Program-made: the position numbers and the translations under genes | The notes under the pieces: model-generated | Database searches by the model: none | The model's input: the letters and a program-made list of their open reading frames with translations, nothing else | What the model was told of the DNA's origin: nothing | In this document: piece after piece, positions 32,473-60,914 of the stretch | Layout: each line of letters begins with the position of its first letter | Position numbering within the stretch: position 1 is the stretch's first letter | IMG/VR virus record: IMGVR_UViG_3300025018_000005 | Reading direction: 5' to 3' (one strand) | Source of the DNA: an uncultured virus (IMG/VR IMGVR_UViG_3300025018_000005) | Taxonomy: Duplodnaviria > Heunggongvirae > Uroviricota > Caudoviricetes | DNA: 64,000 bases

Positions 32473-33141
32473 ATGGAAACAACATTTATCAACATTCTTG
32501 GTGGATTGGTGGCGTCTGGAAATTACGCTGGAGTAGCTGTAATGCTTGGTATTGCAGCTTTTTTTGCTATGTGGCGAAAATTAAAATCAATCGAGAACAA
32601 CCAGAAGCCTAAATTCAAGCACCAAGATTACAATAAGTTCATTGAGCATGACAGCATTGTCATGGACGATCTTGATCGGATTCGTCAAAAATACAACGCT
32701 GATCGAGCTATAGTCTTTGAACTAAGAAACGGTGAAGTAAATGTTGCAAATATACCTAGCATGAAAGTTCATATTAGGAATGAGCAGTTAAAGCCAAACG
32801 TACACTCAGTCAGCTCTGCAATTAACGGTGTTCCAGCGTCATTCTACTCAAGAATACTTAGACAGCTAGTAAAGAATGAAGTCTATTCCCTCCCTGATGT
32901 GTCAGACATAAAAGATACTGACTACGGCCTGTACCAAAACCTGATATACGCAAAAGTTAAGTCGCTCTATGCAATACCGTTGTTCGACTATTCAAACGCG
33001 CTCTATGGGTGTTTGATGATTGAATCCTGCGATAAGCACTTTAACTTCTCCGAGCAAGACATTGAGCGAATCGAAATAGACGCATCACGCTTGAACGGAG
33101 AAATTATGTCTATGAAGAAGGTTGAAGAAAGTCACTCGTAA
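32473..33141 (+). CDS. T4 gpT-like holin (TM plus GAF-like domain)
   Basis: N-terminal TM; ADRAIVFEL.NG...KSLYAIPLFD...YGCL.IE GAF-like pattern. Confidence 0.6.
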   Translation: METTFINILGGLVASGNYAGVAVMLGIAAFFAMWRKLKSIENNQKPKFKHQDYNKFIEHDSIVMDDLDRIRQKYNADRAIVFELRNGEVNVANIPSMKVHIRNEQLKPNVHSVSSAINGVPASFYSRILRQLVKNEVYSLPDVSDIKDTDYGLYQNLIYAKVKSLYAIPLFDYSNALYGCLMIESCDKHFNFSEQDIERIEIDASRLNGEIMSMKKVEESHS

Positions 33142-34781
33142 CCAATTATCTTGTGACCAATGTAGTTACCTGATGGTGTCACTTTTGCATTAGTGACATC
33201 AACATGTATCTTTGAGAATGGCTTTAAGCCGTAGTGATTTAACTCTGCGACAGCCGTTTCTATATGCTTTGGGCATTGGTGTGCTATGTCACCAGAAACC
33301 CTGTCTTCCCACCATCTACACGCCTCAATACGCTGCCAAGGCTCCCCACTAAAATACAAATAATCTTCAATTGAATTGATGCCAATTCCATACCGATAGC
33401 TTACCTTTAGCGAGTCATTTCCCTTTGCGTCTACGTGCTTAGCCCAAGACACATTATTAACATCAAATGCCTTAACAATCTGGTTAATGGTTGTTAGGTC
33501 GCCTTTGCTCGCCTCAGTGCCATGATTCGGTGTTGTATCTCCTCCAAATTCATATCCGCATTTAGGGCAGCTCTTATCAAGATATGGAACGATGTTATTG
33601 CACTGCCAACCATTTGATAAGATGCCTTGGCATTGCTTGAACGGAGTTTTCTTTGCTTGCTTCTTAGCTTCTTTAGTTGGTGGAGGTCCAATCATATCTA
33701 TTCGACCAAATCTCTCAACGTTTGAACCAAAATCAAGAATCAATGCGTTTATCTTTGACTCATGTGTTCTGAGCACTCTACCAAGTATCTGAAGCCACAG
33801 GCTGCTAGACTGCGTTGCTCTCAACACGATTAGCAAGTCTGCATTCTTTGCATTAAATCCTGTTGTTAGTGTGCCGACAGATATAATCCATCTCAGTTTG
33901 AAGTTCTTGAAATCATCAACGATTCGCTTGCGGTCTTCAGTGATAGTCTCACCAATGATAACCTCAGCAAATTCACCTCGATCTTCTAATGCTTTCTTAA
34001 TGTGCTCAGCATGGGCAACGTTGCACGCGAAGATCAATCCTGACTTTCTGTTGCTTGCATATCGCATAGCATCATCCAGCGCTGCATTGGTGACATTATC
34101 GTCATCCATGAGTCTAGCCATTTCTTCTTCATCAAATTCACCGGATTTTGCTTTTTTTATCTTACTAAAATCGAGAGTCAGGCTTGTTTTTGGAGTTATG
34201 ATTGGGCATAGAAATCCATCATTAAAGAGTTCGCTCATTGGAATGCTATAGACTATTTCAGTACAGATCCAAGTACCTTCAATGGTTCCAGATTCCAACT
34301 TCCAAGGAGTTGCTGACAGACTAACAATTCTAGCATGAGGGTTTTTCTTCCAAAGCTCAGTAAAGAACTGATGGTACATGCCACCAACTTTTAACGATGC
34401 TCTGTGAACTTCGTCAATGTAAACAACAGACACGTCGTTGAATAGTGATGCGTTCTTGTAAACAGATTGAATACCGCAAAACACAAGCTCACCAGTATGA
34501 TTTTTCTGCCCATAAGATGCGCTGTATGTTGTAGTTCTCGCGTCAGGCCATTGCTCAAGAAGTTCTTCTCTATTCTGGCCGATAAGCGCTGTTACATCTG
34601 TTAAGAACACCTGCTGCTTGTCAGGTGCTATGTCATACACCCTACGAGCTATCTCAGCTTGCATTAAGCTCTTGCCGGATGCCGTAGGTGCCTGAATGCA
34701 AGGATGACCATCTGTTTCAAACAAATAGTCAATCACTGCATTAATTGCGCCAAGCTGATATGGTCTTGGTATTAAAGCCAT
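33132..34781 (-). CDS. SF2 DExH helicase with zinc finger (RadD/YejH-like)
   Basis: PRPYQ, PTASGKS, IDEVH, LSATP, LTTGFN, QILGRVLR, CPKCGYEF. Confidence 0.92.
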   Translation of the reverse strand: MALIPRPYQLGAINAVIDYLFETDGHPCIQAPTASGKSLMQAEIARRVYDIAPDKQQVFLTDVTALIGQNREELLEQWPDARTTTYSASYGQKNHTGELVFCGIQSVYKNASLFNDVSVVYIDEVHRASLKVGGMYHQFFTELWKKNPHARIVSLSATPWKLESGTIEGTWICTEIVYSIPMSELFNDGFLCPIITPKTSLTLDFSKIKKAKSGEFDEEEMARLMDDDNVTNAALDDAMRYASNRKSGLIFACNVAHAEHIKKALEDRGEFAEVIIGETITEDRKRIVDDFKNFKLRWIISVGTLTTGFNAKNADLLIVLRATQSSSLWLQILGRVLRTHESKINALILDFGSNVERFGRIDMIGPPPTKEAKKQAKKTPFKQCQGILSNGWQCNNIVPYLDKSCPKCGYEFGGDTTPNHGTEASKGDLTTINQIVKAFDVNNVSWAKHVDAKGNDSLKVSYRYGIGINSIEDYLYFSGEPWQRIEACRWWEDRVSGDIAHQCPKHIETAVAELNHYGLKPFSKIHVDVTNAKVTPSGNYIGHKIIGYE

Positions 34782-34782
34782 A

Positions 34783-35001
34783 TTAAATAACGCCCTCCTT
34801 ATTCATCTTAATTATTTCATCAGAGTCGAATCCAGCCTCCTTTAATCGGATCAGATCTTTTATATCCATCTTTTCAGATTCAAAGGACTTCATTGAATCC
34901 ATCCAAGTTCCAATACAGCATCCTGTTGCGTCATAAACTAAGTTGTCATCGTGTACTTCAAGTAATACTTTTTTAGTCATTTTCTTCCTCGCTTTTACCA
35001 A
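34783..35001 (-). CDS. hypothetical protein
   Basis: Packed leftward operon. Confidence 0.5.
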   Translation of the reverse strand: MVKARKKMTKKVLLEVHDDNLVYDATGCCIGTWMDSMKSFESEKMDIKDLIRLKEAGFDSDEIIKMNKEGVI

Positions 35002-35320
35002 TTAATTTTATGGCTTCTTTCTCAAGCTCGACTCCAGAAACATTGTCTTTCGTATAAACATCAAGCTCAATTGCAGACTCGAACCAATCTCCATTATCAA
35101 GCAGCTTCCTCAAAATAGACTCAAGTGCATCAGTGCGCTTTTTTTGGTGTTCGATGCCTGCTTTGAATACGTCAAACATATCGTTAGAAAAATCTACGAC
35201 TGGAACCAACCATTCTTCTTTTGCTGTATAGCGGCCTAATTCTTCAGACCAGAATACACCATCCAATGGTAAGTCTTGAAATCTATCTTCAAACGCCTTT
35301 CTCATTGCTTCGTTATTCAT
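34973..35320 (-). CDS. hypothetical protein
   Basis: GGAG RBS, 115 aa. Confidence 0.6.
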   Translation of the reverse strand: MNNEAMRKAFEDRFQDLPLDGVFWSEELGRYTAKEEWLVPVVDFSNDMFDVFKAGIEHQKKRTDALESILRKLLDNGDWFESAIELDVYTKDNVSGVELEKEAIKLIGKSEEEND

Positions 35321-35352
35321 TATTTATTCTCCAATTGCGCTTTTATTATTTA

Positions 35353-35730
35353 TTAATCTGACTCATCAAGTACTCCGAGTTTTCTAAGTACTGTAATTTC
35401 AGCGTCACTAGGGTTGCTAATAGCTTTTTCCCATCCGTAAATTGTTGCTCCATAATATAGATCATGCAGCTCAAGATCTTCATCGAAATATTCACCTCCA
35501 ATCCTAATCATCTTTTCTTTAAATGTTTCAGTGCCAATAACGTCATACTTATCATCGTAAATATCGAAAGTTTCGCAATCTTCCTCTCTATCAGAAAAAG
35601 ATCCATATTGTTTTTCTTTATCAACCCACCGATAAACACTATCTACTGAGCTAGCAAGTAGAAATGTCTCAATTGATTCATGGCTGTCCTTCTGTGAAAA
35701 GTGTTGCACGTATATTTTATATATATCCAT
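35353..35730 (-). CDS. hypothetical acidic protein
   Basis: GGAGG RBS, 125 aa. Confidence 0.65.
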   Translation of the reverse strand: MDIYKIYVQHFSQKDSHESIETFLLASSVDSVYRWVDKEKQYGSFSDREEDCETFDIYDDKYDVIGTETFKEKMIRIGGEYFDEDLELHDLYYGATIYGWEKAISNPSDAEITVLRKLGVLDESD

Positions 35731-35932: not shown

Positions 35933-35972
35933 CTCCATTAATCAATTCATAAAAATCTAAAGAGTTTTTATT
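35933..35972. repeat. 40-bp direct repeat, copy 1
   Basis: CTCCATTAATCAATTCATAAAAATCTAAAGAGTTTTTATT; 39/40 identical to 37162-37201. Confidence 0.95.
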
Positions 35973-37155
35973 TCAAAAACAACCCATAGTCAACAATCTT
36001 TAATGCGTTTTCCTTGAACTGCCTGTAGTTTACATGGTGGTGCCAACGATTAAATCGCCAAACAACTTTGGCAACATCTGGGTGTAAATCTGCTATCATT
36101 TGCGACTTAGGTTTAGTTCCCTCAATGTCATAAAACTCTTTGCTGTTGCCTCCACGCATACGCTGAGTTGTGACCTTTCCACAGAGAAATGCGTTCATTT
36201 GTATAGTGCATTTACCATCTTTTAACACTCGCAACGAGAGATCAGTGTCCTCATTGTACCGCCCTCTCCATCTGTATCCTGAATCGTTATCAATTAACAG
36301 GCAGGAGTATATTCGAGTATTAAATACAACTGGAGGAACCGCATCTCCATTTTTGCAAAATGAATAATAGTTAAGACCTGCAACTGGTACGTTTGTGTAA
36401 CGATCAACAAAATCCTCTGTCGCTGCCAATGTCGCACCAGTTCTAACCTCTAGCTTTTCATTATCAGTTAGGTAGTGAAAAGCGTCTAAGTTATCATCCA
36501 TAACCCAATGCTTTGAAAATCCATTTGCTTTTAAGTGATCTATGCAAAAATTTCTAGCGGCGCCTGGGCCTTTACTCTTGGTGTCACCAATATTATCGCA
36601 AGTGTCGTACTTATCAAGGTATTTTTTTGGTAGAACCAAAATTTTAGCATTTGTTTTTTCTTCGTACTCATTAGCTTCATGCTCCTCGCAAACAATGTAA
36701 TGGCTGACGCCCATTAAGTCCAATGCCTTTGTTGTAAGTCAATTGCTAGCTCTGCCTTTTGATACTATATAAACAGGGAATCTAGGCCCAGGATGATTAC
36801 TGTAATATTTTTTTTCGGTTATGCCACCCCAGTGAGACCTAAATGGATACCATATAGACTTTGTTTTTGATGTCAGCTTCTGATCAAGAACCACTTCTGC
36901 ATAATCAAGACTTTCAAAAACAACAAATTTCCCTAGAGCAACACCAAACGTCATACACCTATCAATAAACACACTATAATCATCTTCATTATCAAATCTG
37001 AGAAATATCTTTTGCAATCCAATAAGGCATATTATCTTTTTGTATTCAGTTTTTTTGTTTTGAACAAATCTAGGCATACCATGCCAATAGTTGTATTTAT
37101 TATTTATTGCCTTATTTGTTGCTTTTTCTTCCAGCTCAGTCATATCACTACCCAT
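35968..37155 (-). pseudogene. TET-associated/GREB1-like DNA glycosyltransferase with a fused N-terminal partner domain; one in-frame TGA
   Basis: ORFs 36739-37167 and 35968-36723 share a frame: FPVYIVSKGRASN*LTTKALD; GPGAARN, HWVMDDN, NTRIYSC, RYNEDTDL, MRGGN motifs. Confidence 0.75.
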
Positions 37156-37156
37156 A

Positions 37157-38143
37157 TCACACTCCATTAATTAATTCATAAAAATCTAAAGAGTTTTTAT
37201 TAATAAACTCGTTACCTGAGTCATCGCGATAAACAACGTTTCCAGATTCATCCATTTCGATGAGGTCAAGCCAATGTATGATGTTAGGATGATACTTGTG
37301 GCATTCCTTGAAGTCAACCATTTCTTTTTCATTTAAAGCATCTCCTGTCTTTGTGCAGTTCGCACCTGATAATGTAAATTCACAATAACCGCAATTTCTG
37401 CAATTAGGTTTTCCAATGTGACGACCTTTGCAGTACTCATAAGCTTCGCACTGACCTGTTTTCCAAACACACAGCGGCTTATCATATTGAAGGCTCCAAG
37501 CTGGTTCTGGTAATGCGTCACTAACTATAACGTCTTTTGCTTTTGCTTTCAACTCATTAAAGTAATTTTCATCAAAATCAGTCTCTACAACAACCGTTCG
37601 ATGATCTCCTGTTGAATTTAACTTCTCTCTTGCTCCGTGGCTGCAAGCCATAAGTATGTGTTTATGGATTCCAGAATAGCCGCAGTACAAAATTGCCTGA
37701 GCGTAATAGTTCTCATCCCATTTCTTTAATGCCGTTCCTTCGTCTTCTTGTATTAGCTTTGCGAGCTTCGCCTTCTTTTTGTCATCGGTAGACTTCGCTT
37801 CCCAAACATGAGGAGTTTTATCTATGACAATAATCCCATCCTGATGACCACGTAGCCAGTACATATCCTGAAGTGCGAACTGTTCTCCATTCTCTGCCTT
37901 GTCAAATAATTCAACGCCTGCTGCTTTTAGTCTTGAGATAAGTACATCTTCAGAGTGATGACCATCTGCAAAGTGCGATTCCGATTGGTAGTTTGTTTTT
38001 GGGTCGAATGCGTGTCTAAACTCAAGCCACTGTTTTCTGTTGCAGTGAGTGCCGAATGTAGACATGCCAAGGTACGTTCTACGCTGTTCAGGCTTATCTT
38101 CCATTGCCTTCCACATCTTTTCTAGTACGTTTTTATGCTTCAT
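37157..38143 (-). CDS. Cas4-like PD-(D/E)xK exonuclease
   Basis: YLGMS..G.HC.R..W..FR; GHQDGI..WEAKS; YYAQ..Y; C-terminal Cys clusters. Confidence 0.8.
   Translation of the reverse strand: MKHKNVLEKMWKAMEDKPEQRRTYLGMSTFGTHCNRKQWLEFRHAFDPKTNYQSESHFADGHHSEDVLISRLKAAGVELFDKAENGEQFALQDMYWLRGHQDGIIVIDKTPHVWEAKSTDDKKKAKLAKLIQEDEGTALKKWDENYYAQAILYCGYSGIHKHILMACSHGAREKLNSTGDHRTVVVETDFDENYFNELKAKAKDVIVSDALPEPAWSLQYDKPLCVWKTGQCEAYEYCKGRHIGKPNCRNCGYCEFTLSGANCTKTGDALNEKEMVDFKECHKYHPNIIHWLDLIEMDESGNVVYRDDSGNEFINKNSLDFYELINGV
37162..37201. repeat. 40-bp direct repeat, copy 2 (exonuclease 3' end)
   Basis: CTCCATTAATTAATTCATAAAAATCTAAAGAGTTTTTATT. Confidence 0.95.
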
Positions 38144-38154
38144 AAAACCTCCAT

Positions 38155-38179
38155 AAAAAAGGAGGCAATAAGCCTCCTT
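38155..38179 (-). terminator. intrinsic terminator
   Basis: AAGGAGGC-ttatt-GCCTCCTT followed by a T tract on the minus strand. Confidence 0.8.
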
Positions 38180-38199: not shown

Positions 38200-38775
38200 C
38201 TACTTACGTGCAAATGCGTTTGTATTCTGTTGTGTAAATCCACTAGCCTGACCGCCAAATCCGCCTTGTACTGGCTGAGCTTGTTGTGCAGGTTGTTGAG
38301 CTGCTTGCTGCAATGGTTGGCTTGAACCACCAACACCGGCCATCGGCTTGTAGTATGAAGGCTTAGCATCTTTCTCTCCAGATCCGTCATTCTTGTCAGC
38401 CAGTTTGGTTTTAACAACTAACATCTTCTGAATCAGGTTTGTTGGATCAGATGCCTGCTCTGGCGTTAAACCAGCAGCTTCACACAACTTAGCGTAGTTG
38501 ATCTTTCCGAAGTTTCGGTTATTGCCGTTATTGTCTTGGCGAATAACCTCAGTCTGACCATCTGACTCAAAAATAACAAAGTTATCAAACAACTTGCGAT
38601 TATCAAACTGTTGGTGATTTACAATTGATAGTTGAACTGAAACACCCCATTTACCTGACTTGTATTGCTTGTACTCAGCATTCTCTACAATGATAGGATA
38701 GTCACCATTTGGAATTGGTGCGTATGAGTTGTTTTCTTCCTGTGCTTGTTGGTAAGCGTCTGTCATATTTATCAT
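38200..38775 (-). CDS. single-stranded DNA-binding protein (DUF669-like)
   Basis: YAPIPNGDY; RKLFDNF; LCEAAG; Gln-rich tail; follows the Sak4-like gene. Confidence 0.75.
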   Translation of the reverse strand: MINMTDAYQQAQEENNSYAPIPNGDYPIIVENAEYKQYKSGKWGVSVQLSIVNHQQFDNRKLFDNFVIFESDGQTEVIRQDNNGNNRNFGKINYAKLCEAAGLTPEQASDPTNLIQKMLVVKTKLADKNDGSGEKDAKPSYYKPMAGVGGSSQPLQQAAQQPAQQAQPVQGGFGGQASGFTQQNTNAFARK

Positions 38776-38847: not shown

Positions 38848-39663
38848 TTAGTCTTGTTTGCTCCAAGAGCTCATTAATAAGTTTAAGTCCATAGGCATCT
38901 CAAGCGGCAATGGCGGATTAGATCGCGTTTTAGCCATGAAAGCAGGCATTTCGTTTGTGTACAAAATACGAGGACTCTCATTGTTAATAACCTTGTTTTC
39001 CTTCTGACCCATTTTGCCGTCAATTTTACGAACGATTGTTTTGTAGTTTGCAAACAAAACACCATCGCAATTCTTTTGCAGGTAACCAACAGCATCCCTA
39101 TGAAGCTCTGGAATCCATCGATCATAAGGTTCATTGTCTGGCACATTAACGTTCTTAACTTGTGAGTGACCAATCATCCAGACGTTGATATTAAGATCAT
39201 TGCGAATCGTCTCAAGCATAGAGAAAAAGTGCTGCCATTTCTTTAGTGCTCGCTTGTATCCACCACCAAAACCAAAATCTTCGATGTTCTTTTTGACGTT
39301 ACCCTTGTCATCACCTTCTGCACACACCACATCCCAAATCAAAGGCTCAAGTGCAGAAACAGAGTCGACAACTAAGTTGCTGATTGGGAATTTCTCACCG
39401 TTGGTTTTAGCTTCGATGCCAGCCATGTAAACCATCTCAAGCACACCAACAACTTCACCGTAATCTTGGAGTTTTACTCGACCATCATCAAACTGATACT
39501 GAGCAACATCAAGTTCACCGGTACCATCTTCGATTGGTACGAAGTAAGCGTCTGGCAGTAAACTGCACTGAGTTGACTTACCAATACCTGGGACTCCATA
39601 AAACAAGAAAATCTTTGCGTGATCTCGCTTGCCTTTTTTTACATTGTCAAAATTAAAACTCAT
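38848..39663 (-). CDS. Sak4-like AAA ssDNA-annealing ATPase
   Basis: YGVPGIGKST, LVVDS..LE, IGHSQVK, D.VLFANY, AKTR. Confidence 0.85.
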   Translation of the reverse strand: MSFNFDNVKKGKRDHAKIFLFYGVPGIGKSTQCSLLPDAYFVPIEDGTGELDVAQYQFDDGRVKLQDYGEVVGVLEMVYMAGIEAKTNGEKFPISNLVVDSVSALEPLIWDVVCAEGDDKGNVKKNIEDFGFGGGYKRALKKWQHFFSMLETIRNDLNINVWMIGHSQVKNVNVPDNEPYDRWIPELHRDAVGYLQKNCDGVLFANYKTIVRKIDGKMGQKENKVINNESPRILYTNEMPAFMAKTRSNPPLPLEMPMDLNLLMSSWSKQD

Positions 39664-39723: not shown

Positions 39724-42072
39724 TCATTCCTCCTCCGCTATAAATTTACTCGCATATATTCTATGCGGCTTTCTTCCCCTTCCACCATTATCATCCTCAA
39801 CCTGAATAATCTTCTGTGCGTCAATCAACAGATATTGGTAGATTTCGTTTCGAGTCTTGCCATCACAGGATTTGAAAGGATGTAGCTTGTTAAGATCTCG
39901 CTTTAGTACGCCTTCACTCCCAAATCTTTCAATCGTATCGTAAGCCTCTTTGTATCGCTTGTCAAATTGAGATTCGATCATCTCCATGCCAATGTAATCA
40001 ATTATCTGCTCGAACGTATAATCAACAAGCGCAATTGCAAACTCAACACTTTCAAGAGTTACCTTATCGCTATAAGGATTCATTGATAACTCGTATGAAA
40101 GCGCAATTCGCATTGCCTTCTCTCTGTTGCGCACAATCATATTCTCAAGTCGATGTTGTCGCAACTGCTTCTTGCGATTAAGAATACTTACCTCGTACTT
40201 ATCAAGTCTATTCATTGCATCCTTTGCAAACTCAAGAACAATCGGATCAAGTGGTCGCTCATAATTATTTCTGCCTTGTCCGTTCTTACCTTTATTCTCG
40301 TGCATGATCCTACGCTCAATGGTTTCAATCCAAGACAAGATGCTTTGCGGAACTGGAGTGCTCTTAGCTTTCTTGTTCATGAGCTGATCGCCTTCTTGAG
40401 CAAACAAAACCATGAATCGATTTAAGAATCCATCCTGAATCATCATTCGATTCATCGAGTCAGCAAGCTTGTCTGGAGTGGTCATACCAAGAAGTCCAAC
40501 ACTAGGCTTCTGAATGATAATCCTTGTCTTGCTGTCCTCAACGCCTTCCTCGCCCTTCAAGATCTCACGTAAGTTTGTAAACGAGTCTGATGCGTATGTC
40601 GTGTCGTGCTTGCTAAATAGCTCCATCCAAGATTTAACTTCGTTGATCTTATTCTCCGACACGTTCTTGGCTCCGATGATCTGCATCCAGTGAGCCATTT
40701 CATCTTTGACAAACAAGCATCGTGGATCACGATACAGCTCTGTGACGATTGCAGACTTGCCGGTTACTTCACCTTTGATCAGCGCCTCTTGCCTTGCTGC
40801 ATACATGATCTTTGAGATTGCAGTGTATGGATACTCCTTGCCACTACCAGTCTCCGCAACAGTCATCAAATACAATGGCGTATAGTTATCATAATCCGTT
40901 GTAAAGTCTCGGCCTGTTATCGTCCCACAAAAAGCCAAGGCTGCCGATATTGACGGCATATACAGCGGGTACTTTGCAGTCGATACAATGTAGCTGACAA
41001 CCTCACCCATGACACCCTTGATTGATCGCAAACACTCAGGGACATCTTTTATCTCAAGTGCTTCGTCTGTCGAATACTTTTTTAGTACAATTTTCTCCGA
41101 CTCTTTTTTTATGGCGAACTTGCTGAGGTCAATTTCATTTGCGTATGATTGCTCCCATCCATTCTCATAAGCCAGTCTGAAAATAGTCCCTGCTGTTCTT
41201 GGGTTTGAGTTATTTGGAATGCGAGTAAACGAGTCCCATTTCTTACTCATTAGGGTTCCATCATGCTTCTGTGACTTCTCACTCCAGTCCTCCCATAGAG
41301 CATACCCACGAAGGCTCCCTGATGTCTCGTAAGCCAGTCCCATACCGATGTTTAGCCAAGTATCATAGTCAGTGTTGTCGTCATTAGGTATGGCTGCTAA
41401 TGCGCTTTTAAGGTCGTCCAGTGACGATGATCCAGCCTCGTAAGCAGAGTCAAGTACAATGTCTTGACGCTCAACTAAGTTCAGTAAACATTCTGGAGCC
41501 TGACCAACAGATTTTGGATCTGACTTAGAGTGCTCTATAAACTCGTATGGGAATCCGCTCTTGTGATAAGACCCACAACCAACAACAAATGAGCCTTTGC
41601 TCAAAAAATCAATGCCTTTGATTTCTGGTAAATTCTTCACTGTGTTTACGGTTGTTGGCTTCTTGAAGAAGAAGTGCTTTCCGCCACTACCTGTTTTTAC
41701 TGTGAGTGTCGATTCCTTCTCAACATCGATACCAAGAACTTCATTGAGCTCCTTTATTGCGTTGAGATTGTTTCTAGGATCAAAGTCAACGACAAGATCA
41801 TCCTCTTTTAGTATGAGTCCGTATGACTGCTCAAACACTCTGTTCTCAATAAGCGATTCAACCTCGCTTGGCGCTGGCATTTTTGCAGATGACCAATTAC
41901 CAATGCGTGGGTGCTTGTATTGATTCTCGCAGTCTGGGTTTCCGCATTTACACTTGCCTTTGTCATCGACTCCACGGATCAATAGGATATGGTATCCTGC
42001 CTCAGCAAAATCCATTATGTTTTCGTGCATGGTGTCTTCGTTAAAATTATCTCTCAAGTTTACCTCTCTCAT
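39724..42072 (-). CDS. primase-polymerase / PriCT-2 / helicase fusion
   Basis: KHP, VVDFDPRN, TGSGGKHFFF; YDTWLNIGMGL..WEDWS; ETGSGKE, KDE, DGFLNRF. Confidence 0.88.
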   Translation of the reverse strand: MREVNLRDNFNEDTMHENIMDFAEAGYHILLIRGVDDKGKCKCGNPDCENQYKHPRIGNWSSAKMPAPSEVESLIENRVFEQSYGLILKEDDLVVDFDPRNNLNAIKELNEVLGIDVEKESTLTVKTGSGGKHFFFKKPTTVNTVKNLPEIKGIDFLSKGSFVVGCGSYHKSGFPYEFIEHSKSDPKSVGQAPECLLNLVERQDIVLDSAYEAGSSSLDDLKSALAAIPNDDNTDYDTWLNIGMGLAYETSGSLRGYALWEDWSEKSQKHDGTLMSKKWDSFTRIPNNSNPRTAGTIFRLAYENGWEQSYANEIDLSKFAIKKESEKIVLKKYSTDEALEIKDVPECLRSIKGVMGEVVSYIVSTAKYPLYMPSISAALAFCGTITGRDFTTDYDNYTPLYLMTVAETGSGKEYPYTAISKIMYAARQEALIKGEVTGKSAIVTELYRDPRCLFVKDEMAHWMQIIGAKNVSENKINEVKSWMELFSKHDTTYASDSFTNLREILKGEEGVEDSKTRIIIQKPSVGLLGMTTPDKLADSMNRMMIQDGFLNRFMVLFAQEGDQLMNKKAKSTPVPQSILSWIETIERRIMHENKGKNGQGRNNYERPLDPIVLEFAKDAMNRLDKYEVSILNRKKQLRQHRLENMIVRNREKAMRIALSYELSMNPYSDKVTLESVEFAIALVDYTFEQIIDYIGMEMIESQFDKRYKEAYDTIERFGSEGVLKRDLNKLHPFKSCDGKTRNEIYQYLLIDAQKIIQVEDDNGGRGRKPHRIYASKFIAEEE

Positions 42073-49697: not shown

Positions 49698-49943
49698 GTG
49701 GAAGTAATCTTATTCAGCGCATCTTGGTGCGCACCATGCAAGCAATTAAAAGAATTCACAAACAACAATGGAATGAGTTTTAGTAAGGTCTACGACATAG
49801 ATACTGATGAAGGCTCTGAAGCAGCACGTAAGTTTGGTGTAAGGGGTGTGCCGACAACGATTGCTATGAAAGATGGCGGTGAATCCAAGCGAGTCATTGG
49901 GTTTAATATTAACGAGATAAACGAAATTTTTAAGGGGATTTGA
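49698..49943 (+). CDS. thioredoxin/glutaredoxin-like protein
   Basis: FSASWCAPCK, VRGVPT; adjacent to the reductase. Confidence 0.88.
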   Translation: MEVILFSASWCAPCKQLKEFTNNNGMSFSKVYDIDTDEGSEAARKFGVRGVPTTIAMKDGGESKRVIGFNINEINEIFKGI

Positions 49944-52900
49944 TGGACTATACAAATGAAATGAGCAAGTACAACTTCATAAAAGGGTATTCAGCTTGGA
50001 ATGACAAAGAAGGCCGCTACGAGACTTGGGATGAGGCTGTTGATCGTGTCATGGATATGCACAAGGAAAAGTATAAAAGCAAAATAAGCTTAAGTGAGCG
50101 TCTTTCAGATTTGATTGATTTTGCAACTCACGCTTACAAGGATAAGTTTTGCTTGGCATCACAGCGAAGTCTTCAATTTGGCGGTGAACCAATGTTGCGT
50201 AAAAATGGAAGGCAATTTAATTGTCTTACCAGTTATGCTGATCGACCATCGTTTTTCCAAGACACGATGTGGTGGTTATTGCAAGGTGGTGGCGTTGGTT
50301 TTAGCGTACAAAAGCATCACGTGAAAAAATTACCGAAAATAAAGCAGCGATCAGGAGAGGCGAAAATCTTCGTTGTCCCCGATACCATCGAAGGATGGTC
50401 TGATGCAATTGGTGTTTTAATGTCATCTTATTTTGAAGGTGGCGGTACTTTCAAGGAGTATTCTGGGTGTAATGTTCTTTTTGATTTCAGTGAGATTCGA
50501 CCAGAGGGATCACTTATTTCTGGCGGGTTTAAAGCTCCTGGCCCTGACGGATTACGTGCTTCGCTAAATAAAATCGAATCGGTGATTGAAAGCGCAATAA
50601 AAGATGGAGATGTATTGCGTCCAATTCATGTGTACGACATTGTAATGCACACATCTGATGCTGTACTTTCAGGCGGGATTCGAAGAAGCGCAAGTATCTC
50701 AATTTGCAGTCCAGATGACGAAGAAATGATCGAAGCTAAAACTGGTGACTGGTTTGTTAAAAACCCTCAGAGAGCAAGATCAAATAATTCAGTGATGCTG
50801 GTAAGGAGTGAGACAGCGAGAGAAACTTATGGAAAGCTTTTTAAATCAATAAAGCAGTTTGGAGAGCCGGGAATTATTTGGAGCGAAAGCACCGAATTTA
50901 TGTTCAATCCGTTAGCCAATTAAATAACGTGCGGATTTAAAACCTTCTCTGATTGACTTGGACGGTGATGACACACTTACAGGGCGCAAGGGTAAAGCCA
51001 GCGTGAGAGACTAAGCGAGAGGGGCATCTTAATAGGTGCGAGCGATAGTCCAGCGCACAGCAAGAAAGTCATTGATACTTGCGGTGTGAGGCGTAGAAAT
51101 ATCATTCATGCCTGTATCTCCTTCTGGAGTCAGTGCATTTCAGGGATGTAACCTTTATTGAGTAGAGGTTGTAAAAGAGGGTGAATTGCTGGGAAGCCTA
51201 AGTGCGTAGCATAAGGTAATCAGCAGCCAAGCTTTAGGGGCGACCCTTTAGAAGGTTCAACGACTAGAAGATACCTACTCTTTATGAGTAGATGAACTTC
51301 GTACTCTCAAGTGAGAGGAAGCACCCTCCACCAAGTAGCGATTGGTGATGATATAGTCTGAGCTGCATGGAAACATGCAGGAGTTTCTTCATAGATCAAC
51401 ATGAGGGTGATTTATGAGAAAAAATAGGAATGGGTATTTTGAGACTGAGACACATAGAGAATGTACTATGTGCGGCTGTATTTTTGAGAAGAGAAAGTTT
51501 GGTTGCAGAATGAAAATATGCAAACCATGCAATTCAAAAAGAGTCAAATCGCAGACTCCTGAAAAAAGAATGTGGCAAAGAGCGAAACAGAGAGCAAGAG
51601 CAAAAGGAATGGAATCTACTCTTGAGGTTGAAGATATATTTTTGCCAAAAGTATGTCCTATATTAGGGATTGAGTTAAAGGTTAATTCTGGAAGGCCAGG
51701 AGCTTATGATAGCTCGTATTCTTTAGATAGAATTGACAACTCAAAAGGGTATACACAAGATAATATCCAAGTAATAAGCCAAATAGCAAATGCTATGAAG
51801 GCAAATGCAAGTGCAGAGCAATTATTGTTATTTGCAAAATACATACTAAAAACCTATGAAGAAACCGGAGAGGATTAACGACCCTCTTTCAACATAACTG
51901 ACCGAATGTAATGGAGGCGTAATGAATAACATGGAAAATGCAAAGAGGGCTGTGAAGGCTGCAACAATTATTGGGACGTTGCAAGCTGGTTACACAGATT
52001 TTGAATATGGAGACAAAGCAACTAAGGAGGCATTTGAGAAAGAAGCATTGCTTGGCGTAAGCATTACTGGGTGGATGGAGAATCCAGATTTTCTTTTCGA
52101 CGACGACAACATGAAATGCTTGGCTGAGTACGCAAAAGAAATTAACGCTGAGGTTGCCGACTTGATTGGCATCAACAAGGCTGCGAGAATAAGTTGCACA
52201 AAACCCGCTGGCAACTCGTCGGTATTGCTTGGCACTGCTTCAGGGATTCACCCTCACCATAGCAAGCGGTACTTCAGAAATATGCAGGCGAACGTTAATG
52301 AGGATGTACCAAAGGAATTTAAGCGAATAAATCCAGATGCTGTTGAAGACTCTGTATGGTCTGCGAGCGGGAAAGATGTTGTAATTTCATTCCCAATCAT
52401 AGCTCCAGAAGGCGCTAAGTTTAAAAAGGATTTAATGGGTGTTAAGCTTTTAGAGTACGTTAAAAAAGCACAGAACTCTTGGGTTGAGCATGGAACTAGA
52501 CCTGAGCTTGGCAATCACCCAATGTTGCGACACAACATCTCAAACACAATTACTGTTGATGATTGGGATGAGGTTGAGGAATATGTTTGGGAGAACAAGG
52601 AGAGCTTTGCTGGCATTAGCTTCCTTCCTCCGAGTGGAGACAAGGATTATGCTCAAGCACCATTTACAGAGGTAAAAACTGAGCAAGAAATAATCGATGA
52701 ATATGGAGTTGCATCGATGTTCGCATCAGGGTTAATTGTTGATGCGCTAAATGCTTATGAAGCTGACCTGTGGAGAGCTTGTGCTGTTGCGGATGGATCA
52801 AACCCAGATGGGAAGGCTGAACTAACTCATGCCACAAGTAAAAATGCTTTGAAGCGCGACTGGGTTCGTAGGTTCGATAAGTTTGCAGATAAGTATTTTG

Positions 52901-53082
52901 ATGGAGATAAGCGCCAAACAACTTACTTGTTAAAGGATGTGCATCTTCTTCATAAATGGGAGAATGTCACTAAAGCATTCAAGGCAATTGATTGGGAAAA
53001 TGCAGACATAAAGCCAAAGTACGTTGATGTTAATACGACAGGTGCGCAAGCTTGTTCTGGTGGAGTTTGCGAAATAGTATAA
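49943..53082 (+). CDS. nrdJ: ribonucleotide reductase, probably monomeric class II (B12-dependent); exons 49943-50912, 51091-51155, 51901-53082; 738 aa spliced
   Basis: FNC, GVGFSV, GGIRRSA, spliced NPCVEI...CNLTE, TKPAG, C-terminal CSGGVC; no beta-subunit gene in the window. Confidence 0.85.
50913..51090 (+). ncRNA. group I intron 1 (178 nt, no ORF)
   Basis: P1 AAUCCGU/GCGGAUU with U.G; P3 50943-49/51017-23; P7 GACUA/UAGUC; P8; P9; terminal G 51090; removal restores T|GC Cys. Confidence 0.9.
51156..51900 (+). ncRNA. group I intron 2 (745 nt, IA2-like)
   Basis: P1 AACCUU/GAGGUU; AAUUGCUGG and AAUCAGCAG; P3 GAGGGUG/CACCCUC; P7; two extra hairpins between P7 and P3'; P9 with GAAA loop; terminal G 51900. 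Confidence 0.93.
51414..51878 (+). CDS. intron-encoded HNH homing endonuclease
   Basis: N-terminal C..C/C..C; CPILG; SLDRIDNSKGY..DN..VIS..AN..K. Confidence 0.88.
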   Translation: MRKNRNGYFETETHRECTMCGCIFEKRKFGCRMKICKPCNSKRVKSQTPEKRMWQRAKQRARAKGMESTLEVEDIFLPKVCPILGIELKVNSGRPGAYDSSYSLDRIDNSKGYTQDNIQVISQIANAMKANASAEQLLLFAKYILKTYEETGED

Positions 53083-56356: not shown

Positions 56357-57361
56357 ATGATGAAACTTAAAACATACGACTCAGATGATGGCCTATATAT
56401 AAGTGCTGTTACTGGCGGATATTCACACAGCTTTTTGTCATCGGCACTTAATTTTAATGGAAAAAAGTGCGAAAAAACTTGGAGTGAAAAGTGGGTGTTT
56501 CTAAGTGGTGAGCATGAAATAAAATCAATCACACGAGACAAGGTAATGCATCCCAAAATTGAGTTTTACGAATTGGTTGACAAATCGTTTGCCTCTGACA
56601 AGATACCGGAGAAGCTTTCACCGGAAGATGTTGGTCGATATTACGATGACGACATGGAATGCTATTGCTGGCTTAATTATGAGCAAATACGAGGCTTATA
56701 TAAAGAAGTTCTTGGCGATAGCAATGTAATCAAGGAGAATATTGACTTTGAGGAGGAGAGTCTTGGAAAGATAAATATATCTAACAAGGACGCTCCAGAG
56801 AAGCTTTCTGTCAGGGTTGATACCCTTTATGGCAACTCCTCTGAAGTTGATATATCGTCATGTGTCACATACGATGAGCTTTCAAGTATGCTTGTACCAG
56901 ATTTGCTTATTCATAAGCAACCATGCTCAATTACTTCAGAGCAGGCTTATTCTGTTATAAGAAATCACGTCAAAGAGCATATAGACGTAAAGCAGGCGAT
57001 AATTACATCTGACTATGATTTTTGCTTTAATGTCAAAAAGCTGGTATCAATAAAGCCATACGTAAAGACAACTGAAGAAAGGAAAGCTAATGGTCGATCC
57101 TACGCAAAGCCAAGGATTCATAAAAGAACCATAGAGCACAAACAAATTGACTGGTTTGAGATGACGACAAAGAAAAAGCGACACGGCAGTTACACGCCAA
57201 TAGAGGGATTCTCTGGCGATTCGCTTGATGATCTTATTGCCAATATAAAAAATTACTTGGATGAGCTAATGGATAGCATTAATTGCGAGCTAAAGGAATG
57301 CAGTCATTGTTCAGGATCTGGTATAGTCCATGTCGAAAAATTCAAAGCAAACGAGAGGTAA
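56357..57361 (+). CDS. hypothetical protein with C-terminal CxxCxG
   Basis: 334-aa ORF; ITSDYDFCF.VKK; CSHCSGSG. Confidence 0.7.
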   Translation: MMKLKTYDSDDGLYISAVTGGYSHSFLSSALNFNGKKCEKTWSEKWVFLSGEHEIKSITRDKVMHPKIEFYELVDKSFASDKIPEKLSPEDVGRYYDDDMECYCWLNYEQIRGLYKEVLGDSNVIKENIDFEEESLGKINISNKDAPEKLSVRVDTLYGNSSEVDISSCVTYDELSSMLVPDLLIHKQPCSITSEQAYSVIRNHVKEHIDVKQAIITSDYDFCFNVKKLVSIKPYVKTTEERKANGRSYAKPRIHKRTIEHKQIDWFEMTTKKKRHGSYTPIEGFSGDSLDDLIANIKNYLDELMDSINCELKECSHCSGSGIVHVEKFKANER

Positions 57362-57363
57362 GA

Positions 57364-57600
57364 ATGATTGTAATTCAAAAAAGCTTTTCAGATAGTAATC
57401 TTAGCAATCGAGATTATATGGATAAGGTTGTTGTAAGAATTGATGGTGTGAACGTATTTTCTGTTCATGATGGTGAGCCAGAGGATAACAACCTTCGCAG
57501 GAACTTTAACGACTGTTACTCTGTTTTGCGATTAATGGAGAGGATGTACGAGGCAGGAAAGGCTGGAGAGGTGGTCGAGTTTAGGGAAGATGAAATATGA
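57364..57600 (+). CDS. hypothetical protein
   Basis: GAGG RBS; DGEPEDNNL.RNFND. Confidence 0.6.
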   Translation: MIVIQKSFSDSNLSNRDYMDKVVVRIDGVNVFSVHDGEPEDNNLRRNFNDCYSVLRLMERMYEAGKAGEVVEFREDEI

Positions 57601-58118
57601 GCATACTTATAACAGGATATGGAAGAGCTGGCAAGGACACATTCTGCGAGATTCTTCGGGATAAGTTCGGAATGACATTCACAAGCAGTAGCTGGTTCAT
57701 GGCAAATGAGTTTATTTTTGACGAGTTAAAGGAATCTCGCGGATACAAGACTGTTGAGGATTGCTATAATGATCGTCATTCTGAAGGCTCTCGTGAATTG
57801 TGGTACAACATGATTTCAGATTACAATAAAGACGATCCGACAAAACTAGCAAGAAAGATACTTGAGGTTAATGATATTTATTGCGGGATGCGAAGCAAGC
57901 GGGAACTTGATGCGTGTGTAGAGAGCGGTGTTTTTGATCTTACAGTATGGATTGATGCTGAAGCTAGATGCGGGATAACTGAAACGAAAGAATCAATAAC
58001 CGTATCAAAGCATGATTGCGATATTATTATTTACAACAATGGAACTGAAAAAGACCTTGAAGTTGAGGCCAGTAAATTCTATAATAAATTGCAGAGGCTA
58101 GAACACAGAAGCAAATAA
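57597..58118 (+). CDS. deoxynucleoside monophosphate kinase-like protein
   Basis: ITGYGRAGKDT, GMRS.RE, DIIIYNNGT..DL. Confidence 0.75.
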   Translation: MSILITGYGRAGKDTFCEILRDKFGMTFTSSSWFMANEFIFDELKESRGYKTVEDCYNDRHSEGSRELWYNMISDYNKDDPTKLARKILEVNDIYCGMRSKRELDACVESGVFDLTVWIDAEARCGITETKESITVSKHDCDIIIYNNGTEKDLEVEASKFYNKLQRLEHRSK

Positions 58119-58162
58119 CTGTGATAGAATCCGACTTGTTTATTATTTAATTTGGAATTAAT

Positions 58163-58432
58163 ATGAGTGGATTAGACTTGGGCCATTACCCAAAAAGCGG
58201 AGATGATGGCGATATAGCTGCAATAAGCTCTGAAAATGATTTGAAAATTGCAATGTATCGCCATAAAATAGATAGTCACAACAGTGAGATAGCAGTAACG
58301 GGTTTTTGTGCGTTTTGCGGCATTGAGATAGATGAAGGAAAGTTCTGCCCTCCAGACCACGAATATAATTATTCGTGTGCAAGTGAATATCAGCGGGAGC
58401 AGGATGCAAAGAAAAGAAACGGATTGGCGTAA
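58163..58432 (+). CDS. TraR/DksA-like zinc-finger protein
   Basis: DDGDIA tip, GFCAFCG.EI, FC...C...Q. Confidence 0.6.
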   Translation: MSGLDLGHYPKSGDDGDIAAISSENDLKIAMYRHKIDSHNSEIAVTGFCAFCGIEIDEGKFCPPDHEYNYSCASEYQREQDAKKRNGLA

Positions 58433-58501
58433 TTGGTGTTAGTGGTAGCATATCTGACTTCCAATCAGATGGGACGAGTTCGATACTCGTATTACGCTCC
58501 A
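58427..58501 (+). tRNA. tRNA-Gly(TCC)
   Basis: Acceptor GCGTAAT/ATTACGC, anticodon arm TCTGA-CTTCCAA-TCAGA, GTTCGA T-loop, encoded CCA. Confidence 0.93.
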
Positions 58502-58516
58502 AAATAGAGGAATGTT

Positions 58517-59173: not shown

Positions 59174-59250
59174 GGCCTGTAGCTTATTGGTAAAAGCACC
59201 ATACCTGATAAAGTGGAGATCGCTGGTTCGATTCCAGCGCGGGCGTATCA
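59173..59250 (+). tRNA. degenerate tRNA-Ile(GAT)
   Basis: AGGCCTGTAGCT start, CTGATAA loop, GCTGG-TTCGATT-CCAGC T arm; mismatched acceptor and anticodon stems, ends ATCA. Confidence 0.6.
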
Positions 59251-59323
59251 TATTAAATGTTGGTATATAGAAACTAATTATTGGTACACAAAAAAACTAT
59301 TGACATTTGGACTTGTCAATCTT

Positions 59324-59360
59324 AAAATCCCCTTATTAGAAATGTTAAGGGGATTTTTTT
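59324..59360 (+). terminator. terminator overlapping a TTGACA promoter
   Basis: AAAATCCCCTTA/TAAGGGGATTTT plus T tract; TTGACA at 59299. Confidence 0.7.
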
Positions 59361-60871: not shown

Positions 60872-60914
60872 ATAGTCGATTATTCTCGATTGAAATTAAA
60901 CAGCAGGAGGCTTT

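Follow-up and report, generated by a model that had tools for sequence, protein, structure and literature searches.

A 40-nt direct repeat was found to bracket a single glycosyltransferase (GT) gene in the 64-kb stretch of uncultured phage DNA analyzed here (hereafter, the window). The repeat is likely the scar of an insertion in which a GT gene of the TAGT family entered the junction of a translationally coupled exonuclease gene and DUF7167 gene; the cargo would later have suffered a nonsense mutation that probably inactivated it, and its deletion through the repeat is possible. Single-gene additions inside coupled phage operons are usually ascribed to unspecified illegitimate recombination followed by selection. 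At this locus the joints are legible base by base, and two parallel cases offer both filled and empty alleles in sequence.

The repeat and the locus around it

A repeat search of the window revealed two copies, 1229 nt apart, that are identical at 39 of 40 positions (98%) and share a perfect core of 29 nt. The sole mismatch is TTA/TTG, which encodes Leu either way. With up to three mismatches allowed, the 40-mer had exactly two matches in the 64-kb window and none in 100 dinucleotide-preserving shuffles; a scan of the 64 kb detected no second direct repeat of at least 24 nt with more than 83% identity. Both copies were present at the same spacing and with 100% identity in four IMG/VR contigs, each from a different metagenome assembly, in G001 (the nearest record, the same phage as the window) and in metagenome locus L186, some of which may be the source of the window itself. 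Logan contigs from four further runs each spanned one junction without differences, at the downstream copy in record 2 and at the upstream copy in records 14, 22 and 29. A pattern scan of IMG/VR found the repeat core in this phage only. An assembly or chimera artefact can be given practically no weight, because independent assemblies are identical in structure and short contigs of further runs bridge the junctions. The 40-nt repeat is far beyond chance and reproducible across assemblies. An earlier note on this DNA had described the pair as 39/40 identical with a synonymous difference, and the repeat search, the shuffles and the other assemblies confirmed this description.

All genes of the locus are on the minus strand (Table 1). 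In the upstream copy the exonuclease ends as ...NKNSLDFYELINGV. The translation of the downstream copy is NKNSLDFYELINGGQQ, with the in-frame continuation ...INGGQQ*, and its TGA shares bases with the ATG of the DUF7167 gene (61 aa), which was probably the ancestral, translationally coupled downstream neighbor of the exonuclease gene, judging from this arrangement. The stop codon of the GT gene, TAA, sits within the first bases of the downstream copy. The likely GT start is the ATG at 37155 (residue M5), while the ATG at 37167 falls within the repeat; GT, from the ATG at 37155, and DUF7167 each begin 5–6 nt past the GGAG that ends a copy. Within the cargo, no promoter or terminator was detected above chance (26 promoter-like sites in the region vs 25.7 expected from shuffles), and neither repeat copy contains a promoter-like or terminator-like site. 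Among the remaining five junctions within the accessory block, none held a decayed older copy of the exonuclease end (scores of at most 10.5). The phage itself is siphovirus-like.

Table 1. Features of the repeat-bracketed locus, listed in the direction of transcription (window positions)
Feature	Position	Strand	Remarks
Sak4-like AAA_24 single-strand annealing protein	38848..39663	-	PF13479, E 8e-31; PHROG 124, E 8e-31
DUF669 / SSB-like protein	38200..38775	-	DUF669; SSB PHROG 378, E 8e-9
Cas4-domain PD-(D/E)XK exonuclease with C-terminal Cys cluster	37157..38143	-	PHROG 1990, E 3e-36; its 3′ end is the duplicated part
Upstream repeat copy	37162..37201	-	Last 13 exonuclease codons (NKNSLDFYELING) ending in GGAG, the Shine-Dalgarno site for GT
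Unique cargo	35973..37161	-	1189 nt: 6-nt spacer and GT open reading frame; own promoter/terminator absent
GT part 1	36742..37155	-	Variable leader, N-terminal alpha/beta domain (W-GMPxF-Q motif), beta1 and SKGR loop of TAGT
In-frame TGA, residue 143	36739..36741	-	Gly in 65/66 aligned homologs
GT part 2	35968..36738	-	Rest of TAGT / predicted GT-A catalytic domain including invariant D224-D225; open
Downstream repeat copy	35933..35972	-	39/40; exonuclease-end relic; GT stop TAA at 5′ edge, GGAG for DUF7167 at 3′ edge
DUF7167 gene, 61 aa	35740..35925	-	PF23768, E 4.8e-16; ATGA overlap with relic frame
Three small accessory ORFs (125, 115, 72 aa)	34783..35730	-	
SF2 helicase (ResIII / Helicase_C)	33132..34781	-	~35 nt past exonuclease in 7 related loci

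Directly upstream, HMM matches were obtained for all three members of a Sak4-like/SSB-like/Cas4-exonuclease module within one operon, and the order of these genes is kept in relatives. The phage homologs of the exonuclease carry the annotation Cas4-domain exonuclease. The recombination module recognized at this place by the earlier note is thus borne out by Pfam and PHROG profiles.

The repeated peptide NSLDFYELIN aligns with a C-terminus (consensus NSxDFYxEFN) conserved in 13 exonuclease homologs of 47–75% identity. The repeat is therefore native to the exonuclease gene, whose ancestral end survives as the downstream copy, as the earlier note had suspected. Fourteen related loci were available, and GT, DUF7167 and the three small ORFs, which together form a 2.4-kb block, are present in none of them. 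In seven that span the junction, the exonuclease gene is followed by the helicase gene after a gap of ~35 nt; one further locus has two unrelated ORFs there. Comparison of related phages, which the earlier note had proposed, thus revealed sites without cargo (seven) or with other cargo (one) but no empty exonuclease-to-DUF7167 junction.

More distant searches returned mostly the GT gene. At the DNA level, only the GT body matched cultured phages (~70% identity, 13 records), and in the two Vibrio phages examined it lies in different contexts. A near-mode DNA search of the phage collection gave no match and the distant mode gave the GT body only, while the exonuclease protein reached at best 31.7% identity in the same collection. 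The nearest exonuclease homologs (P0001, P0002 and P0004) are 60–75% identical, and a search of genome contigs with P0001 found no match. When metagenome contigs were searched with DUF7167, the sole match was a contig of 80.6 kb that showed no difference from the window over the part compared. No relative close enough to carry the exact empty exonuclease-to-DUF7167 junction was found among the phage collection, IMG/VR and the metagenome contigs searched, and the order of insertion within the 2.4-kb block is for this reason deduced from the repeat alone. The 39/40 identity of the copies could reflect gene conversion instead of recency.

An interrupted glycosyltransferase

Read through its internal stop, the cargo matched the TAGT family PF20691 with E 2.3e-52 (178.4 bits, cutoff 27.5), over the whole profile (1–205 of 205) and residues 130–340 of the read-through translation. 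It also matched PHROG 842 (E 7.6e-58). The family assignment given in the earlier note is supported by the PF20691 match. An AF2 model (pLDDT 83.9, pTM 0.81) had its best PDB matches among GT-A glycosyltransferases (LH3, TarS, TarP and POMGnT1; E 4e-5 to 1e-3), with a TM of ~0.3 that is normalized to the whole two-domain query; a GT-A fold is predicted for the cargo. The pair D224-D225 is invariant in 67 sequences and may form the DxD metal-binding motif. For the N-terminal domain there was no Pfam match and no usable Atlas structure match (TM <0.5), and the family profile gave no PDB sequence match.

The coding sequence, which in a TAGT gene should be uninterrupted, contains a TGA at residue 143 in every assembly covering the position. 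The AF2 model places this residue between strand 132–135 and helix 145–151, in the first strand-to-helix (beta1-alpha1) loop of the catalytic domain. The corresponding column holds Gly in 13/13 and 65/66 aligned homologs; in distant family members Arg (13/75), Met (5/75) or other residues (3/75) are also found. Since the three closest IMG/VR loci use GGA here, a single G-to-T change would have been enough. Among the best 120 of 7863 matches there was no intact allele above 87% identity, and a 248-aa fragment was present on 24 contigs. Suppression or recoding of the TGA was rejected: the phage has a single tRNA, a tRNA-Gly(UCC) of standard form whose anticodon loop measures 7 nt, and TGA serves it as an ordinary stop, found at the end of 25 of 83 ORFs.

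The window GT is probably inactive or nearly so. It is rather unlikely that the gene is still functional and kept as an active glycosyltransferase, either by low-level UGA read-through or as two associating polypeptides. Such a gene would fit the insertion scar equally, the two views differing on activity alone. For activity speak the 256 codons that stay open past the TGA, with every invariant column of the family alignment retained, the two-ORF versions of the family in three other phages (L053, L087 and L108) and the Arg or Met found at the stop column in some distant members. UGA followed by C is a weak termination context in E. coli, and the base after this stop is indeed C. However, TGA followed by C also ends eight ordinary window ORFs, the phage tRNA is no suppressor, and the break lies inside the catalytic domain, past beta1 and the SKGR loop, whereas the natural split forms break before beta1.

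As to substrate, DNA is suggested by the family assignment, and it is the family name from which an anti-restriction role would follow. TAGT genes are expected in association with TET/JBP or pyrimidine hydroxymethylase genes; Pfam searches found no hydroxymethylase or TET/JBP among the 87 window ORFs; of the 80.6-kb genome, 16.6 kb or more lies outside the window. The thymidylate synthase (PF00303) scored as a canonical ThyA (equivalog NF002498, 427.2 bits vs a cutoff of 427). The working DNA-modification module envisaged in the earlier note is doubtful, given an in-frame TGA where 65 of 66 aligned homologs have Gly. With a stop inside the gene and no substrate pathway found in the window, the GT should not be counted as an active counter-defense.

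Parallel insertions, excision and gene gain

Two other GT genes of this family, at unrelated junctions in other phages, are also flanked by repeats. In the first case (L053, L113 and L114) the repeat is 37 nt long, matches at 31 of 36 aligned bases with one indel, and corresponds to the end of an upstream 74-aa gene including its ATGA overlap. Empty sites are available for this case, as in L115 and L116 the flanking genes are directly coupled and a single repeat copy is present. In the second case (L108) a 23-nt repeat (20/23) flanks the GT gene. Of 64 loci with the downstream gene of this case, one has the GT; the flanking genes are adjacent in 52, separated by gaps of 40–832 nt in five, and six have no match to the upstream gene. 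The left joint is at ATGA in both parallel cases and at GGAG in the window, and the right joints are at the GT stop or up to 8 nt past it. The duplications in the three events thus measure 40, 37 and 23 nt.

Flank-repeat scores were calculated for 73 GT loci. The highest were 37.5 (the window phage), 23.0, 15.5 and 15.5, whereas 1500 non-cognate pairs reached 14.5 at most. In a control on the same loci, scores of 15.5 or more were obtained around 17 of 447 non-GT ORFs, vs 4 of 73 GT genes; some of the control repeats are promoter or terminator elements, not insertion scars. Mobility specific to the GT was rejected on this basis. Since flank repeats are about equally common around non-GT ORFs, the window case appears to be an instance of general phage gene gain rather than a GT-specific element.

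The insertion could have proceeded as follows. A promoter-less GT ORF with a 6-nt spacer would have been joined, nearly ORF-precisely, into the coupled exonuclease-DUF7167 junction, with the left joint at the shared translation signal GGAG and the right joint at the GT stop, the recipient being re-entered 40 nt upstream of where it had been left. With the exonuclease 3′ end and the ribosome-binding site duplicated, GT as well as DUF7167 is preceded by a functional initiation region, and the conserved C-terminus of the exonuclease stays intact. The joints may have been made between phage genomes replicating together, by template switching or by microhomology-mediated illegitimate recombination, and selection would then have favored those preserving expression. 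The nonsense codon in the loop between beta1 and alpha1 of the catalytic domain, probably a GGA changed to TGA, would have been gained later. Occasional precise deletion between the repeats by the phage's own Sak4, SSB and exonuclease proteins would be a consequence of the scar, not a demonstrated switch, and rare deletion of the cargo is plausible.

The earlier note had gone further, proposing an integrase-free GT module that the Sak4/SSB/exonuclease proteins excise, reintegrate or amplify, so that an anti-restriction modification is toggled. The geometry agrees with this: repeats with a 29-nt perfect core bracket exactly one gene, removal of the cargo and one copy restores an ATGA-coupled operon, the Sak4-like annealing protein, SSB-like and exonuclease genes lie directly upstream, and PeSL cassettes of T4-type phages are described as recombining between short flanking repeats to give mini-circles (PMC2839356). 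The sequences, in contrast, contain the filled form in every assembly examined (the four IMG/VR contigs, G001 and L186). The 24 runs that contain the phage are represented by Logan contigs, which are consensus sequences and blind to low-frequency excision. Four runs that shared 0.41–0.56 of the words, and so might have contained an empty allele, turned out to have the filled form in fragments of low depth; their contigs contained no empty junction, circle or tandem copy, and the one apparent joint in them (skips 795, side 21, loose ends) was below the reliability threshold. The premature stop is fixed wherever the position is covered, and the window has no detectable gene for a hydroxymethylated base. 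In the L053 lineage the repeats have drifted to 31/36, yet two diverged phages both retain the insertion, so that insertion is stable. Finally, the repeat is target-derived, and each parallel insertion lies in a different target, so the locus cannot have originated by reintegration of a circle from the same context. We therefore regard a toggled cassette as improbable.

About equally improbable is a Campbell-type single crossover of a small circle, carrying GT and one 40-nt copy, excised from a close relative with the same exonuclease-GT arrangement in the manner of PeSL mini-circles. A single crossover through the 40-nt homology would yield exactly repeat-cargo-repeat, and the 1229-nt unit resembles many ~1.2-kb contigs with GT homologs, which contig-length bias explains equally well. 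Yet such a circle requires an earlier identical arrangement and pushes the origin back one step. GT genes are found at unrelated junctions with each repeat derived from its own target, and no further copy of the 40-mer was detected in the window, nor in IMG/VR beyond this phage.

The insertion scar may have a wider counterpart. It is possible, and we suggest it tentatively, that aquatic phages routinely gain promoter-less operon genes by ORF-precise capture at translation signals, the products being the window GT, the two other GT insertions and ~3–4% of other ORFs on these contigs, and Sak4-type proteins perhaps driving the process. An incoming ORF would join at a Shine-Dalgarno or ATGA start/stop motif that it shares with the recipient, and replication or annealing would re-enter the recipient 20–40 nt upstream, duplicating the end of the upstream gene and the initiation region. 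If this is true, the product is expressed at once, both neighbors are unharmed, and the gain is reversible through the repeat until the copies drift. The outcome repeated in the window and the parallel cases, a joint at a translation signal with a 23–40-nt duplication of the initiation region, provides a concrete, testable rule for recognizing recent gene gains in metagenomic phage contigs and also explains mosaic boundaries that fall exactly at gene boundaries.

Comparison with known systems

No published account of initiation-region duplication at phage gene insertions was found in the literature searched, by titles and the starts of abstracts. The closest described elements are the PeSL (promoter-early stem-loop) cassettes of T4-type phages (Arbiol et al. 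2010, PMC2839356; Comeau et al. 2014, PMC4122927). Like the window locus, they consist of short direct repeats around a non-essential ORF in a variable region and involve no integrase; as outlined in these accounts, the phage's own recombination is thought to act on patches of homology below 50 bp, and circle excision is possible in principle. In contrast to PeSLs, described there as conserved promoter and terminator motifs that occur many times and recur from phage to phage, the window repeat is a local target duplication of coding sequence and a Shine-Dalgarno site, present in only two copies, and its cargo has neither promoter nor terminator. The window repeat is thus neither a σ70-like promoter with a terminator stem-loop nor a sequence with many dispersed copies.

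Morons (Hendrix et al. 2000, via PMC2839356) are, according to that source, likewise single accessory genes between two genes of a conserved module, presumably placed there by illegitimate recombination and then selected. They carry a promoter and terminator of their own and frequently run in the opposite direction, whereas the window cargo is co-oriented, depends on operon transcription and borrows the ribosome-binding site of its neighbor.

The window GT belongs to the same Pfam family (PF20691) and PHROG (842) as the TAGT of T-even phages such as T6, where the enzyme is thought, in the account of PMC13390438, to add a second glucose to glucosyl-5hmC. It differs in its extra N-terminal domain, its stop codon and its siphovirus-like setting, and in that the window yielded no hmC, hmU or TET gene.

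Among phage annealing proteins, recombination at short homologies is described for Sak4 with SSB (PMC5928155) and for lambda Red (PMC2327257), systems that, in these descriptions, use short, diverged homologies. The window encodes Sak4-like, SSB-like and exonuclease proteins beside the repeat; the action of this module on the window repeat is predicted from the genes.

The repeat also resembles the target-site duplications of transposons in being a target-derived direct repeat around inserted DNA. A transposon or insertion sequence was rejected: the cargo encodes no transposase, only GT, the repeat search of the window found no inverted repeat at the cargo ends, and the duplication length is not fixed. 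Unlike transposon duplications, those in the window and the parallel cases vary in length by event, between 23 and 40 nt, and have their joints at translation signals.

The direct repeat and its site

A repeat search of the window detected a direct repeat of 40 nt (29 nt perfect plus 10 nt, one mismatch) at 35933–35972 and 37162–37201, with a spacing of 1229 nt. Allowing up to 3 mismatches, the window contains the 40-mer exactly twice; 100 dinucleotide-preserving shuffles contain it nowhere, and no other direct repeat of at least 24 nt above 83% identity was found in the 64 kb. The sole mismatch is TTA/TTG, Leu both ways. The exonuclease ORF terminates in NKNSLDFYELINGV and a stop codon; the downstream copy translates as NKNSLDFYELINGGQQ and a stop, a TGA that overlaps the start codon (ATG) of the 61-aa DUF7167 gene. 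GGAG terminates each copy. The repeat, its synonymous difference and the reading frames are thus as described in the earlier note. The structure is present at 100% identity in the nearest record, G001, which is the same phage, in four IMG/VR contigs, each from a different metagenome assembly, and in one JGI metagenome locus; short Logan contigs of four further runs span the junctions with no difference. An assembly artefact, the concern raised earlier, is ruled out by this recurrence in independent assemblies.

Thirteen exonuclease homologues (47–75% identity) all end in the motif NSxDFYxEFN and a short, variable tail. The three nearest exonuclease proteins are 60–75% identical. Since the motif is common to all thirteen, the repeat stems from the exonuclease's own coding sequence and its downstream copy is a relic, which upholds the proposal that this copy marks the ancestral gene end.

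The window phage is siphovirus-like (terminase, portal, Gp13-like capsid protein, tail tube, tape measure and endolysin genes) and also encodes replication and nucleotide-metabolism modules. In the region of interest every gene lies on the minus strand.

Genes of the region of interest, in gene order
Feature	Coordinates	Strand	Remark
Primase-polymerase/helicase	39724–42072	minus	first in gene order
Sak4-like AAA_24 protein	38848–39663	minus	
DUF669/SSB-like protein	38200–38775	minus	
Cas4-domain exonuclease	37157–38143	minus	cargo next
Cargo (glycosyltransferase, GT), unique part	35973–37161	minus	between exonuclease and DUF7167
DUF7167, 61 aa	35740–35925	minus	then three small ORFs
SF2 helicase	33132–34781	minus	after three small ORFs

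We compared 14 related IMG/VR loci at the exonuclease junction. Seven span it (L010, L011, L012, L014, L015, L016 and L022; exonuclease 51–56% identical): the helicase follows about 35 nt after the exonuclease, and its ribosome-binding site lies inside the exonuclease end. At the cargo position L018 (50% identical) carries a pair of unrelated ORFs (150 and 107 aa), L021 (33% identical) shows a gap of about 170 nt, and the remaining five loci end short of the junction. GT, DUF7167 and the three small ORFs had no tblastn match in any of the 14. Helicase-adjacent, other-cargo and gapped relatives together indicate that the site is a variable spot within a conserved module. The comparison for empty sites and other cargo, suggested earlier, thus revealed a variable site; the exact exonuclease-to-DUF7167 empty allele was not seen among the 14 loci, none of which is closely enough related to show such a junction.

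A second junction of the module, between the SSB-like gene and the exonuclease, also varies: it measures about 680 nt in L010 (2281–2964), L011 (4318–5001) and L019 (4132–4815) and about 64 nt in sister loci L012, L013 and L015. In the window it holds a terminator-like hairpin (38159–38179, minus strand: AAGGAGGC...GCCTCCTT, then a T run), so the exonuclease, cargo and DUF7167 may form their own transcription unit or be attenuated. At the boundary of the lysis and replication modules, a 222-aa GAF-domain protein (32473–33141; weak match, E 8e-5) is convergent with the helicase. Further away, 56357–62737 encodes a homologue of the Gabija anti-defence protein Gad1 (PF25705, E 2e-63), a T4-type RNA ligase, a PNKP-type kinase/phosphatase and tRNA-Gly(UCC) (58427–58501), a combination that suggests a cluster for counter-defence and tRNA repair. 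A B12-dependent (class II) ribonucleotide reductase is apparently in two ORFs, 49940–50923 (RNR alpha and insertion-domain matches) and 51922–53082 (RTPR C-terminal region matches); the separating ~1 kb holds a 154-aa ORF without Pfam match. The arrangement could reflect an intervening element or splitting of the gene.

The cargo gene and its in-frame stop codon

The cargo is a single gene of 399 residues when read through one in-frame TGA (36739–36741). Its most plausible start is the ATG at 37155 (M5), leader length being normally variable in this family. This ATG and the DUF7167 start each lie 5–6 nt past the GGAG of the respective repeat copy, and the GT stop TAA falls inside the first bases of the downstream copy; the unique cargo therefore consists of a 6-nt spacer and the ORF. 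No promoter or terminator signal above chance was found in it.

Residues 130–340 match Pfam TAGT (PF20691) end to end (E 2.3e-52), and PHROG 842 was also matched. Homologues (7863 matches at E ≤0.001 among 8000 scored candidates) are uninterrupted, about 385–395 aa long and of the same two-domain layout. In an AlphaFold2 model (67 aligned sequences; pLDDT 83.9, pTM 0.81) the catalytic domain has a predicted GT-A fold, with LH3, TarS, TarP and POMGnT1 as best PDB matches (E about 4e-5); searches gave no family or fold assignment for the N-terminal alpha/beta domain of ~100 residues. Many full-length homologues among the matches listed lie on contigs of ~1.2–1.3 kb, barely exceeding the gene, which could reflect contig-length bias or assembly breaks where a conserved gene meets its many different flanks. 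In three other phages, L053 (2986–4066), L087 (2983–4135) and L108 (2958–4059), overlapping ORFs in different frames encode the N-terminal and catalytic domains separately. The break immediately precedes strand beta1 (MNPxxPIYIVSKGR), and the arrangement appears to be a split form that occurs naturally in the family.

According to PMC13390438, the TAGT enzymes of T6-like phages are thought to attach a second glucose to glucosyl-5hmC. A scan of the 87 ORFs of the window, outside which lie at least 16.6 kb of the genome, turned up no TET/JBP or hydroxymethylase, and the PF00303 protein of the window meets the ThyA equivalog cutoff (427.2 bits versus 427). Neither a TET/JBP nor a hydroxymethylase was annotated in Vibrio phage 1.124.O, which has an intact GT homologue (64 of 71 features viewed, mostly hypothetical proteins). 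The designation "DNA glycosyltransferase" is therefore an inference from the family name.

The TGA lies at residue 143, in a loop of the model between strand 132–135 (PVYIVSKGR) and helix 145–151. Its column is Gly in 13/13 and 65/66 aligned homologues, and the codon is GGA in the three closest IMG/VR loci, so one G-to-T change is enough. Among the best 120 of the 7863 matches the closest intact relative is 86–87% identical, and a 248-aa C-terminal fragment is recorded on 24 contigs. Leaky or two-piece function despite the TGA is a minority possibility: the rest of the ORF is open with all invariant residues retained, the column holds other residues too in the wider family (Gly 54, Arg 13, Met 5, other 3 in 75 motif instances), and two-ORF forms occur naturally. 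However, TGA is an ordinary stop in this phage, ending 25 of 83 ORFs (8 with C next), the only phage tRNA is a normal tRNA-Gly(UCC), and natural forms split before beta1, whereas this TGA falls after it. Most likely, the GT was recently inactivated.

Target-derived duplications at other junctions

A DNA-level search of 50,697 phage records matched only the GT body, at ~70% identity, in phages of Vibrio, Aeromonas (T4-like), Paraglaciecola and Pectobacterium; the flanks had no match. In 1.124.O the homologue has Dam methylase and dUTPase genes nearby, and in phage 1.076.O it lies between portal and head-morphogenesis genes. The cargo is a horizontally travelling gene.

Eighty IMG/VR loci with GT relatives were fetched; dropping three window-phage duplicates, three contig-edge GTs and one locus by flank length left 73, some of them near-duplicates of one another. 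Sequence just upstream of the GT was aligned with sequence just downstream. Against a null of 1500 non-cognate pairs (mean 9.2, maximum 14.5), the window phage scored 37.5, L053 23.0, and L087 and L108 15.5 each. In L053 the upstream 74-aa gene ends in DNAKEVCE and a TGA that overlaps the GT start (ATGA). Directly after the GT stop, 37 nt of this gene end recur (31/36 aligned bases, one indel) and give the next gene's ATGA start. In the related L115 and L116 the flanking genes are directly coupled, with one sequence copy and without the GT, which is present in L114, a diverged sister of L053. L108 carries, after the GT, a 23-nt copy (20/23) of the upstream 77-aa gene end, up to ATGA. Among 64 loci with its downstream gene, one has the GT, 52 have adjacent flanking genes, five have gaps of 40–832 nt and six lack an upstream-gene match. 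The repeat of L087 is intergenic, measures 28 nt and ends in GGAG. The left joint of all three clear events falls on a translation signal shareable by donor and target (ATGA twice, GGAG once), the right joint is at the GT stop or up to 8 nt beyond, and the duplication is target-derived and of varying length (40, 37 and 23 nt). Thus, the near ORF-precise cargo of the window lies in a coupled junction between two copies of target-derived sequence, and two other junctions are alike, with sequenced empty alleles.

The same test was run on 447 other ORFs of the 73 loci. With near-duplicate loci counted, 17 (3.8%) scored at least 15.5 and 13 at least 20, compared with 4/73 and 2/73 for GT. Nine cases were inspected. 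Duplicated initiation regions, holding a stop, Shine-Dalgarno site, ATG and first codons, were found in L096 (42 nt; 265–507), L040 (25 nt exact; 275–910) and L039 (29 nt exact; 1745–2500), together with a promoter-like element in L096 and terminator hairpins reminiscent of promoter-early stem-loops (PeSLs) in L104 (501–1322) and L085 (1764–2111). The window repeat is therefore one instance of general accessory-ORF carriage in these phages; a signature special to GT is ruled out by the 17 non-GT cases.

Origin of the repeat and known systems

Joining probably occurred between co-replicating genomes, by microhomology-mediated illegitimate recombination or by template switching, with left microhomology at GGAG/ATGA and right microhomology probably at AATAA of the stop codon. 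Selection would then retain only products preserving the upstream protein's end and an initiation region for both cargo and downstream gene. Longer duplications would vanish fast by recombination and insertions without duplication would harm a neighbour gene, consistent with the observed 23–40 nt. Each event duplicated its own target, which rules out an origin by reintegration of a circle that had been excised from the same context.

T4 recombination acts on patches under 50 bp, as cited in the Discussion of PMC2839356, and Sak4 is described in PMC5928155 as a single-strand annealing protein stimulated by its SSB. Given this length range and Sak4 annealing, rare precise deletion between the repeats is plausible. 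In the L053 lineage the insertion persists while the repeat copies diverge. What stands of the cassette proposed in the earlier note is that a horizontally travelling gene was inserted at a variable site, its body recurring in other contexts and relatives differing; an excisable, amplifiable, toggled anti-restriction module found no support in anything measured, and the cargo, with its in-frame TGA, looks broken.

Flanking repeats may be a mark that gene gain generally leaves in aquatic phages. In literature searches, titles and opening parts of abstracts contained no description of initiation-region duplication at inserted genes. The closest known concept, as presented in PMC2839356, is the modular shuffling mediated by PeSLs of T4-type phages; a PeSL is a dispersed regulatory motif, whereas the window repeat is a one-off duplication of coding sequence and ribosome-binding site.
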